A DNA stretch of 10,685 bases from a virus (taxonomy: Duplodnaviria > Heunggongvirae > Uroviricota > Caudoviricetes). Below, in pieces: positions 6,375 to 9,316 of this stretch. The position numbers and the translations under genes are program-made. Under the pieces are notes generated by a model, which saw only the letters and a list, made by a program, of their open reading frames with translations, was not told the origin of the DNA and ran no database searches. The DNA lies in the IMG/VR virus record IMGVR_UViG_2690316109_000013, positions 1 to 10,685 of that record. One strand, given 5' to 3'. Numbering within the stretch: the stretch's first letter is position 1; each line of letters starts with the position of its first letter.

Positions 6375-7021
6375 ATGACCCCAATAAAAATATTTATGAC
6401 TATTGCTGATTTCAAACGGCCTAAATTGGAGCTTCCAAACGGGGCAAACAAACTACTACTGCACTCTTGCTGTGCTCCATGTTCCGGTGAAGTGATGGAG
6501 GCGCTTCAGGCCTCGGGAATCGACTACACCATCTTTTTCTACAACCCGAACATTCATCCTCAGAAAGAGTATTTAATTCGTAAGGATGAAAATATTCGCT
6601 TTGCTGAACAACACGGCGTGCCGTTTATCGATGCTGATTACGACACCGACAACTGGTTTGAACGTGCCAAAGGAATGGAATGGGAGCCTGAGAGGGGGAT
6701 CCGTTGTACCATGTGTTTTGACATGCGTTTTGAGCGGACAGCGTTGTACGCTGCTGAAAATGGTTTCAGTGTGATCAGATTAACGAGTGTGGGCGGCGAG
6801 CTGTTGCGCATTATCCGGGTATGGTGTACTGGGATTATAACTGGCGCAAGCAGGGCGGCTCGTCCCGTATGATTGAAATCAGCAAGCGCGAAAAATTCTA
6901 TCAGCAGGAATATTGTGGCTGTGTGTATTCTCTGCGCGATACCAATCTACACCGCAAATCTCAGGGACGCCCTCTTATCAAAATTGGCCAACTCCACTAC
7001 GGAAAAGAAGAGAAGGAGTGA
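6375..7021 (+). pseudogene. DUF208 / QueH-like (B12-independent epoxyqueuosine reductase family) gene split between two reading frames
   Basis: N-terminal part in the 6375-6872 ORF carries [11 protein letters not shown] and CTMC motifs; the C-terminal part, with [11 protein letters not shown] and EYCGCVYS, is in the 6821-7021 ORF in a different frame. The second frame is open from 6758, so the shift lies between about 6758 and 6872. No RBS is evident before either candidate ATG (6375 or 6396). Confidence 0.55.
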
Positions 7022-7091
7022 TTTTATGGATCACCTTTCTGATTGATTTCATATTGGCGAGGTGACGTGAGTTAAGTAGAATTGCTGCGGG

Positions 7092-7116
7092 TGCCTGAGG
7101 CTGTCTGCCTCAGGCA
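7092..7116 (+). other. Perfect 9-bp stem-loop in the leader upstream of the methyltransferase gene
   Basis: tgcctgagg (7092-7100), 7-nt loop, cctcaggca (7108-7116); no adjacent T-tract on either strand. A weak promoter candidate TTGGCG-17-TAGAAT (7054-7082) lies just upstream. Confidence 0.3.
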
Positions 7117-7199
7117 TGAACACCAAAAGGCAGATAGAGAAAGCCCCAGTTAACATTACGCGTCCTGTAAGACGCTCAACATTAATCTGAGGCATATGG

Positions 7200-8324
7200 A
7201 TGCGGATGAAAGAATTAAATAAATTCAGAGTGATAGACCTCTTTTGTGGGGCAGGTGGATTATCTTATGGTTTTCTTCATGGAGAGATGTCTGACTACTT
7301 TGAAAGTATCCTTGCTATTGATAATAATGCTGCAGCTATAAATACCTACAATGCCAATTTTGGTTTGCATGGAGTTCAGGCAAATATTGAGGAGTGGGCA
7401 TCCAGCAATACTGTTCCTGAGGCTGATGTGGTCATAGGTGGCCCCCCGTGTCAGGGATTCAGTTTATTGAATAAGAATCGTTATGGTGATCACCGAAGAG
7501 CATTGTGGGAGCCTTATATGGATGTCATTGAGCGTTCAAGGGCTTGTATGTTCGTCATGGAAAATGTCCCCGGATTGCTGATAAGCGATGAGTTTGCGGA
7601 CATTACGTTTAGAGCGAAATCCATGGGCTTTATTCTGCTTAATCCAATGGTGTTGAATACTGCTGACTATGGAGTACCTCAGACAAGAAAACGAACGATA
7701 GCAATCGGTATCAAACGAGAACTCTTCGATGTGCATAGTATTCCGGCGTTCCCGCCAGCACCAACGCATCGTTCCCCTGATAAGGATGTCGCTTTGCCTG
7801 AATGGGTCTGTACGCGTGATGCAATTGGTGACTTACCTGCTCCTGTTGGAACTGATATTCGTAATGAACTTCCTCCGCTGAACTTACATTTTGGGCGTAA
7901 TCCCACACCTGTTTCTCTGGAGCGATATAAAGCGGTTCCACCAGGAGGTAACCGTTTCGATTTACAGAAAAAAAGACCTGATATAACCCCGGCGTGCTGG
8001 CTAAAAAAGAAATCTGGAGGGACCGATTTGTTTGGACGTCTGTGGTGGGACAGACCTTCAGTAACGATTCGTACTGAGTTTTTCAAACCGGAGAAAGGGC
8101 GATATTTACATCCGGAAGAGGATCGGCCAATAACTCATCGTGAGGCAGCGAGATTAATGTCTTTTCCTGATAATTTCATTTTTACCGGTTCAAAAACTGA
8201 GATTGCAAAGCAGATCGGGAATGCTGTTCCACCGCTATTTGCGGCAAAAATCGCACAATATGTGTATGGAGTTTTGCAGGGACGGTATAAGAATAACATC
8301 AGTAAGAATAGTCAAGCAGCCTGA
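7200..8324 (+). CDS. DNA (cytosine-5)-methyltransferase, type II R-M modification subunit (374 aa)
   Basis: C5-MTase motifs: FCGAGGLSYGF (motif I, AdoMet binding), GGPPCQGFS (motif IV, catalytic Cys), VMENVPGL (ENV), QTRKR and C-terminal GNAVPP. TGAGG RBS 7 nt upstream of the ATG at 7200. Confidence 0.9.
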   Translation: MRMKELNKFRVIDLFCGAGGLSYGFLHGEMSDYFESILAIDNNAAAINTYNANFGLHGVQANIEEWASSNTVPEADVVIGGPPCQGFSLLNKNRYGDHRRALWEPYMDVIERSRACMFVMENVPGLLISDEFADITFRAKSMGFILLNPMVLNTADYGVPQTRKRTIAIGIKRELFDVHSIPAFPPAPTHRSPDKDVALPEWVCTRDAIGDLPAPVGTDIRNELPPLNLHFGRNPTPVSLERYKAVPPGGNRFDLQKKRPDITPACWLKKKSGGTDLFGRLWWDRPSVTIRTEFFKPEKGRYLHPEEDRPITHREAARLMSFPDNFIFTGSKTEIAKQIGNAVPPLFAAKIAQYVYGVLQGRYKNNISKNSQAA

Positions 8325-8337
8325 AGGAAATCCAGAA

Positions 8338-9216
8338 ATGAATGGAGATTTGGTTGACAGCATAGTTGGTTTTGCTGAAGCCAGAAAGGAGTTTCATGCC
8401 CAATTGTTACTGAATACGCTCACAATTAATACTGCCGGAGTTGTTAGTAACGCAGATAGCAGTAACAAAAACAGTAAAGCTATAGCAAGAGAAATTGCTC
8501 GCTTCTTGCAGGCTGAAACGATTGGTGAACGTGTTGCAGGGCAAACATCTGGTAATCAGTTTGAGAGTATCTGCGCAGAGTTTATAGAAAAAACCTTTTT
8601 TAAACTCAGCCACTTACGCCCTGGAAAATGGAATGTACATCAGGTTTCTGGTAGAAACAGATTAGAGATAGCTAAATATGAACAATATGCCCATCTTATA
8701 GCATTGGATAGTGCTGCAAAAAGTAATCCTCAGCTAGCTGCTGCACTGGGGAGTGATTATACGATTTCACCAGATATTATTGTTGAAAGAGAACCTGAAT
8801 GTGATCAAGTTATCAACAGTCCTGAATTACTGGTGGATGATTCTGTTACCCGCATGTCAGCTCTCAGGAGTTCGAATGGTGGGAAACCAATATTACACGC
8901 AAGTATTTCCTGCAAATGGACAATAAGAAGCGACCGGGCCCAGAATGCTCGTTCTGAGGCATTAAATCTTATTCGCAACCGTAAGGGAAATCTCCCTCAT
9001 GTAATGGTTGTTACTGCTGAGCCTACTCCAAGTCGTCTGGCGTCTATTGCTCTTGGTACTGGTGATATAGATTGCGTGTATCATTTTGCGCTTTATGAAC
9101 TTATATCAGCAGTTGAAATACTGGGGCTCAGCGATGCAGCTGACATGCTTTCCGTGATGGTTAATGGTAAAAGATTAAAGGATATTTCTGATCTTCCCTT
9201 GGATCTTGCAGTCTGA
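8338..9216 (+). CDS. Type II restriction endonuclease, NgoMIV/Cfr10I family (292 aa); predicted CCGG-core target, probably GCCGGC
   Basis: ATG at 8338 lies 13 nt after the MTase stop, with AAGGA 9 nt upstream. Catalytic-motif candidates SPDIIV (D146), SCK (K193) and ARSE (E207) have the D-to-K (47) and K-to-E (14) spacing that I recall for NgoMIV D140/K187/E201. The track ORF 8203-9216 extends upstream into the MTase gene in another frame. Confidence 0.8.
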   Translation: MNGDLVDSIVGFAEARKEFHAQLLLNTLTINTAGVVSNADSSNKNSKAIAREIARFLQAETIGERVAGQTSGNQFESICAEFIEKTFFKLSHLRPGKWNVHQVSGRNRLEIAKYEQYAHLIALDSAAKSNPQLAAALGSDYTISPDIIVEREPECDQVINSPELLVDDSVTRMSALRSSNGGKPILHASISCKWTIRSDRAQNARSEALNLIRNRKGNLPHVMVVTAEPTPSRLASIALGTGDIDCVYHFALYELISAVEILGLSDAADMLSVMVNGKRLKDISDLPLDLAV

Positions 9217-9288
9217 CATCTCTACGTAAATAGAGTCTGTCATATTTTAACTGTGATGGCACGTCATTGACTTCAGTACATTTTTACT

Positions 9289-9316
9289 AACCCGCTTCGC
9301 GGGTTTTGTTTTTTCC
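9289..9316 (+). terminator. Rho-independent terminator closing the R-M cassette
   Basis: aacccgc-ttc-gcgggtt GC-rich stem followed by the T-tract ttgtttttt (9304-9316); located about 70 bp after the endonuclease stop. Confidence 0.7.

Follow-up and report, generated by a model that had tools for sequence, protein, structure and literature searches.

A predicted GCCGGC restriction–modification pair at the hok/sok locus of a Rac-like lambdoid prophage of Escherichia coli

To which family does the endonuclease gene of this prophage belong, what sequence does its product recognise, and has the system left a mark on the frequency of its own target? These questions are raised by a stretch of DNA of 10,685 nucleotides, analysed here in full and termed the window, which encodes a protein resembling the restriction endonuclease NgoMIV and from which GCCGGC seemed to be missing. 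The window corresponds to the early region of a Rac-like lambdoid prophage of Escherichia coli, and the explanation that we favour, at a probability of roughly 0.85, is that this region carries an intact Type II restriction–modification (R-M) pair with a predicted GCCGGC target. Of its parts, the homology, the residue conservation, the order of the genes, the boundaries of the insertion and the site statistics are shown directly, and we infer the specificity, the behaviour as a tetramer, the use of the promoter and the activity. Both genes have already been annotated by PGAP and the family is well known. What is new is that the methyltransferase is not M.NgoMIV-like, and that the two-gene cassette appears to have replaced the hok gene of a hok/sok locus. 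The methyltransferase gene (M) and the endonuclease gene (R) are as follows.

7200–8324, + strand: C5 cytosine DNA methyltransferase with a predicted GCCGGC target (374 amino acids; PF00145)
8338–9216, + strand: NgoMIV-family type II restriction endonuclease, predicted to cut G^CCGGC (292 amino acids; PDB and Pfam matches, residue conservation)

The endonuclease is translated from ATG 8338, an internal start in an open reading frame closing at 9216, to give a product of 292 amino acids; PGAP chose the same start for WP_001012717.1, labelled 'NgoMIV family type II restriction endonuclease'. When compared by phmmer with all PDB sequences, the protein matched NgoMIV (1FIU/4ABT) alone, with E=1e-118 and residues 12–292 of the query against residues 5–286 of the chain, and global alignment gave 65.8% identity (185 of 281 aligned residues). 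The Pfam family PF09015 is matched at E=6e-127 and 423 bits, against a cut-off of 23.2 bits, with residues 19–292 covering positions 1–275 of the 275 in the profile. The translation has E at residue 76, D at 146, K at 193 and E at 207. [quoted passage not shown] It had also read a constant offset of six as a six-residue N-terminal extension. The offset is indeed 6 at all the catalytic residues, but it is 7 across the first ~25 residues, and NgoMIV has one residue more near residue 25; the window enzyme (292 amino acids against 286 in NgoMIV) thus differs from R.NgoMIV by a seven-residue extension together with a one-residue deletion.

The arrangement of these residues is that of a permuted active site, in which P145-D146 is followed by 46 residues, K193, 13 residues and E207, while E76 lies upstream. 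This D-X46-K-X13-E spacing agrees with the active-site motif of the CCGG family, PDX46-53KX13E (PMC3413111), and the protein would accordingly be expected to adopt a PD-(D/E)XK fold with a permuted PD...K-X13-E active site. Twelve functional positions were tested in an alignment of 84 sequences, comprising NgoMIV, the window protein, 80 species-representative genomes (Proteobacteria, Acidobacteria, Planctomycetes, Firmicutes and others) and two Klebsiella loci, and all twelve were invariant. As judged from sequence, the window protein is a genuine NgoMIV-family endonuclease and an orthologue of NgoMIV, with E76, D146, K193 and E207 as its predicted catalytic residues.

Recognition of the CCGG core in this family is attributed to an RxDR motif (PMC3413111, PMC5389614), and the outer G:C pair is contacted in NgoMIV by D34 and R227 (PMC5389614) and by Q63 (PMC3413111). 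The window enzyme has R197-S198-D199-R200 aligned to NgoMIV R191-S-D193-R194, and D40, Q69 and R233 in place of D34, Q63 and R227; all of these are invariant in the 84 sequences. With the RxDR motif and the contacts to the outer G:C pair conserved to this degree, the specificity is very likely to be G^CCGGC. The enzyme would read CCGG through RxDR and the outer G:C pairs through D40, Q69 and R233, cutting at G^CCGGC.

A relaxed or different specificity, such as the R^CCGGY of the Type IIF enzymes Cfr10I and Bse634I, has to be weighed against this prediction. The window endonuclease shares with those enzymes the CCGG-family fold, the PDX46-53KX13E motif and RxDR (PMC3413111); since the active site and RxDR are common to all CCGG-family enzymes (PMC3413111), they do not by themselves fix the outer base pair, and the partner methyltransferase, discussed below, is not of the M.NgoMIV type. 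Yet the 65.8% identity is to NgoMIV itself, Cfr10I and Bse634I went unmatched in the PDB search even at E<=1, the outer G:C contact residues are kept and invariant family-wide, and the methyltransferase lineage is tied also to NaeI, another strict GCCGGC enzyme. An R^CCGGY enzyme is therefore very unlikely. NgoMIV is described as tetrameric (PMC3413111, PMC5389614), and Cfr10I and Bse634I show tetrameric two-site cleavage (PMC3413111). By analogy with NgoMIV, and judging only from 66% identity to it, the window enzyme may likewise be a Type IIF tetramer that would bind two sites and cut them together.

With G^CCGGC as the predicted specificity, the nearest characterised counterpart is R.NgoMIV of Neisseria gonorrhoeae (Type IIF, G^CCGGC), which the window enzyme resembles in length, in its PD...K-X13-E active site with the upstream Glu, in its RSDR motif and in its outer G:C contact residues, and from which it differs in being carried by an enterobacterial lambdoid prophage. 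Eco56I (G^CCGGC) is an E. coli isoschizomer, which carries no weight here as evidence; a literature search for papers on the present E. coli system found none.

The methyltransferase gene starts at ATG 7200 (374 amino acids) or, according to PGAP, at 7206 (372 amino acids; WP_001427299.1, 'DNA cytosine methyltransferase'), and its product matches PF00145 with E=4e-54. It ends 13 nt upstream of the endonuclease gene on the same strand, and the AGGA Shine-Dalgarno sequence of R, 13 nt ahead of its start, overlaps the stop codon of M. Translation of R would be coupled to that of M, and the upstream C5-methyltransferase would shield the cell's own GCCGGC sites. The window was searched beside the R-M pair for a controller (C) protein gene and a Vsr gene, and neither was found. 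A Vsr-like (very-short-patch repair endonuclease) open reading frame, called by eye from the sequence, follows one methyltransferase homologue elsewhere (L148 1728–2195).

Is the pair, then, simply an orthologue of the Neisseria system? That idea was dropped once the methyltransferase proved to be of another type than M.NgoMIV. The comparison used methyltransferases beside NgoMIV-family genes as stand-ins for M.NgoMIV. In the 80 species-representative loci a gene for a shorter C5-methyltransferase precedes that of the NgoMIV-family nuclease; its product is 23–34% identical to the window methyltransferase in 22 of them and too remote to be picked up at E=1e-10 in the other 58. By this measure the window methyltransferase is outside the M.NgoMIV-type lineage, at about 25–30% identity to the methyltransferases beside most NgoMIV-family genes. 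It is a member of a lineage of 370–380 amino acids that is common in Enterobacterales, and the E. coli R-M pair, which couples an NgoMIV-type enzyme with a methyltransferase from a different lineage, is a mosaic and no straight orthologue of the Neisseria system.

The database names of the methyltransferase homologues are generic ('DNA cytosine methyltransferase') and uninformative on specificity; the specificity of the lineage was approached through neighbouring genes. Three kinds of partner were found. An NgoMIV-family nuclease accompanies the lineage in a Klebsiella prophage (methyltransferase and nuclease each 80% identical to those of the window) and, among 80 metagenome loci, in 11. A NaeI-family nuclease (PF09126; PDB 1EV7, E=8e-35) adjoins it in one genome, where the two genes are convergent and the methyltransferase is 66% identical to that of the window, gap-free and with the variable target-recognition region included. 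An HNH protein of 330 amino acids is the partner in a Yersinia P2-like prophage and in 57 of the 80 metagenome loci. This HNH protein (L092 5100–6092; L096–L173) has a C-terminal HNH domain with a weak match to McrA (PDB 6GHC), and presumably represents a third family of nucleases, unrelated to the other two, that shares or covers the GCCGGC target.

GCCGGC is the target of both NgoMIV and NaeI, and the partnership of lineage relatives with both enzymes gives independent support for GCCGGC methylation. From the nucleases that adjoin its relatives, the window methyltransferase is predicted to target GCCGGC, but with an HNH nuclease beside 57 of 80 relatives the lineage could have as its target some related word within which GCCGGC simply falls. 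The likeness to the NaeI system (GCC^GGC; PDB 1EV7), for which GCCGGC would be expected on both sides, is a likeness to one NaeI-linked relative and is confined to the methyltransferase; the window nuclease belongs to a different family and, if NgoMIV-like, has a different cut position.

How the pair came to lie on this prophage can be approached from its distribution and its surroundings. A prophage that adjoins yccA/tRNA-Ser in a commensal strain from humans (NZ_CM136167.1) matches the window at 99.9% identity, and the central 2.4 kb of the window recur at 100% identity in a prophage of O157:H7 strain 9000 and in many other O157:H7 strains; the same two proteins are annotated in strain 9000 and in the commensal strain. 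The R-M cassette occurs in 60 of 5,426 complete E. coli genomes, at an identity of at least 99% in 59 of them. Several features of the window lie apart from the cassette. The prophage queH gene (epoxyqueuosine reductase, PF02677; 6396–7021) has a frameshifting 38-bp deletion at about 6776–6778, between short CAG repeats, and the gene of 221 amino acids is intact in both L001 and L002. A full-length DicF small RNA (RF00039, 72.5 bits; 672–723, – strand) adjoins dicB/ydfC-type genes, and an STnc100-like match at 465–674 (– strand) reaches 39.8 bits, below the 47-bit gathering score. A second difference in length from the closest genome, of about 34 bp, lies at 439/440 (L002 19933–19968), and identity is lower, at 98.4%, across 7–439.

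The cassette occupies the slot that hok/sok takes in lambdoid prophages, flanked by the replication genes on one side and by the DUF968/rusA/Q genes on the other, and the elements that surround and include it are as follows.

7054–7082, + strand: promoter-like site TTGGCG-17 nt-TAGAAT, candidate promoter of the M–R operon (consensus scan only)
7089–7193, + strand: 5′ leader kept from a hok/sok-type type I toxin–antitoxin locus (Rfam RF01794, phage homology)
7194–9287, + strand: two-gene R-M cassette in place of the hok coding region (homology breakpoints, G+C content)
9289–9315, + strand: intrinsic terminator-like hairpin (9289–9305; 7-bp stem with 5 G-C, by scan), then the T tract TTTTGTTTTTT

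Homology to the hok-carrying phage vB_EcoS-640R1 runs up to 7193 and resumes from 9288; between these breakpoints the phage holds the hok 'host killer' gene (replaced segment, L174 2626–2912). The cassette has a G+C content of 42–44%, against 49–53% in the flanks. On its left, the leader is 93.6% identical to L174 2501–2625, an identity that ends at 7193, and it now abuts the start codon of the methyltransferase directly. The Rfam model RF01794 (sok) matches 7089–7269 with 61 bits (gathering score 59, E=7e-12) and aligns well only to 7193, while the intact hok/sok locus in L174 scores 112 bits. The promoter-like site lies just upstream of the start of the Rfam model at 7089, and of its two hexamers the second is identical, and the first nearly identical, to those upstream of the hok leader in vB_EcoS-640R1; promoter- and terminator-like consensus matches are no more numerous in the region than in shuffled sequence. 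On the right, the terminator region is nearly identical to L174 from 9288 on, with one 1-nt gap, in the hairpin.

The locus thus keeps several parts of known hok/sok loci (a promoter-like site, a leader of about 105 nt and a terminator, at 84–94% identity) and differs from them in that the hok open reading frame and the 3′ fbi element are replaced by M and R. Tested as a hok/sok locus, the window retains the leader and the terminator alone. Also lost in the window is the 3′ hok mRNA element complementary to the 5′ end of that mRNA (GCACCCGC), and a consensus scan of the region turned up nothing promoter-like for an antisense Sok RNA. The related cassettes of Klebsiella and the metagenomes share only the coding sequence with the window (7218 to about 9210–9220, at ~72% nucleotide identity), with different flanks; the hok leader is missing from them, which indicates that the leader belongs to the E. 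coli insertion site and not to the cassette. These boundaries suggest that a bare two-gene cassette would have replaced the hok toxin gene, and we infer that the hok promoter, leader and terminator now serve the cassette, M and R probably being transcribed from the promoter through the kept leader to the kept terminator.

It might be argued that such an arrangement no longer yields an active nuclease, and that the pair is kept as a methyltransferase with a silenced or attenuated passenger gene. The predicted fold of the leader is stable (z=–3.6), with the GAGG/ATG region of the M gene paired, so that the start region of M would be sequestered, and NgoMIV E201A is reported with only 25% of its activity left, so the fold tolerates attenuation (PMC5389614). 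Against this, the endonuclease reading frame is intact and of full length with all catalytic and recognition residues present, its identity is at least 99% across 59 genomes of unrelated lineages, and the Shine-Dalgarno sequence and gene spacing fit coupled translation. We regard an inactive endonuclease as very unlikely, and an intact R-M pair remains the favoured reading.

If the pair does act on GCCGGC, has it shaped the frequency of that word? The original prediction reported a window free of GCCGGC, with six ACCGGC/GCCGGT sites and one ACCGGT, and judged this a merely weak depletion against 2–3 expected sites. Exact counts agree (0, 6 and 1). The expected number of GCCGGC sites is 2.1 from base composition, 2.4 under a maximum-order Markov model and 2.58–2.62 from dinucleotide shuffles or first-order simulations, and the probability of finding none is about 0.07–0.12, which is not significant. 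Counts in other DNA were as follows.

Complete prophage of the closest genome, with R-M: 53.5 kb, 17 GCCGGC (18.0 expected from composition, 34 Markov), 0.32/kb
Same prophage less the window and both IS66 copies, with R-M: 37.6 kb, 12 GCCGGC, 0.32/kb
O157:H7 strain 9000 prophage, partial (L001 8700–42401), with R-M: 33.7 kb, 4 GCCGGC, 0.12/kb
Carrier strain chromosome sample: 218 kb, 8 GCCGGC (66 expected), 0.037/kb
K-12 MG1655 sample, without R-M: 100 kb, 4 GCCGGC, 0.040/kb
Lambda, without R-M: 48.5 kb, 1 GCCGGC, 0.02/kb
Phage Evi, hok allele, without R-M: 40.0 kb, 9 GCCGGC, 0.22/kb
Phage vB_EcoS-640R1, prophage part, hok allele, without R-M: 37.0 kb, 4 GCCGGC, 0.11/kb

It had been suggested that the missing sites could reflect site avoidance in this phage lineage or the system's own history; on that reading, selection on the phage lineage or the host would have acted against the target of the system. 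The empty window and the strongly depleted carrier chromosome, at about 0.1 of expectation, are what such selection would leave. Beyond the window, however, GCCGGC is as frequent in the prophage as its base composition predicts (17 sites in 53.5 kb), at a density 8.6-fold that of the host (0.32 against 0.037/kb; binomial p=2e-7, and p=4e-6 once the window and the IS elements are removed). The original prediction had named GCCGGC at its expected frequency in the rest of the prophage and in the host as grounds for refutation, and the counts show this for the prophage but not for the host. The depletion of the host is about 10-fold, and K-12 and lambda, which lack the system, are depleted to about that extent; a similar species-wide depletion is seen for GGCGCC. 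Densities in the non-carriers Evi and vB_EcoS-640R1 are similar to those in the two carrier prophages, the homologous early regions of both phages have no GCCGGC either, and a self-methylating element needs no avoidance of its own site. Avoidance is thus most improbable, and this part of the original prediction falls away. The scarcity of GCCGGC is a general property of E. coli and coliphage DNA, unrelated to the R-M system, and its density in prophages is unrelated to R-M carriage; given a depletion of about 10-fold across the species, the absence of the word from a short window of E. coli DNA is uninformative.

Within the complete prophage, the 17 sites cluster in late and accessory genes (esterase, capsid, portal, the end of J, lom and tail fibre), and five of them lie inside two IS66-family elements (L002 41952–44368, L003 16156–18771). 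The clusters in late and accessory genes are located as follows.

L002 34501–35189 and 45027–47809: clustered prophage GCCGGC sites
L003 644 and 11636–12930: clustered prophage GCCGGC sites

Among related words, TCCGGA occurs eight times in the window against 2.4 by base composition, and 46 times in the whole prophage against 14.5; the count equals the Markov expectation, which points to common pentamers rather than to selection on the hexamer. A bias of the six ACCGGC sites towards one orientation (p=0.03) was put down to chance, the prophage-wide ratio being 40:31.

The low frequency of GCCGGC bears also on what the pair might do for its prophage. As a tentative suggestion, about which we are more doubtful than confident, the R-M pair, expressed from the hok promoter and the structured leader, may be the successor of the hok/sok addiction module, stabilising the prophage by post-segregational killing. 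If so, killing would act through some 180 chromosomal GCCGGC sites, a figure extrapolated from 0.037 sites/kb, and the pair would not serve phage defence, since a two-site Type IIF enzyme would cut E. coli phages such as lambda poorly, with so few sites to act on (one).

The analysis provides a prediction of specificity (GCCGGC, m5C) for a prophage system that about 1% of complete E. coli genomes carry, O157:H7 lineages included. It may be of use in interpreting transformation barriers and the m5C methylomes of carrier strains, and otherwise adds little beyond annotation. For the evolution of R-M systems, the locus would offer two examples of modularity: an NgoMIV-type nuclease joined to a methyltransferase lineage that also partners NaeI-type and HNH nucleases, and a possibly addiction-type R-M pair that appears to have precisely replaced hok/sok at a prophage hotspot.
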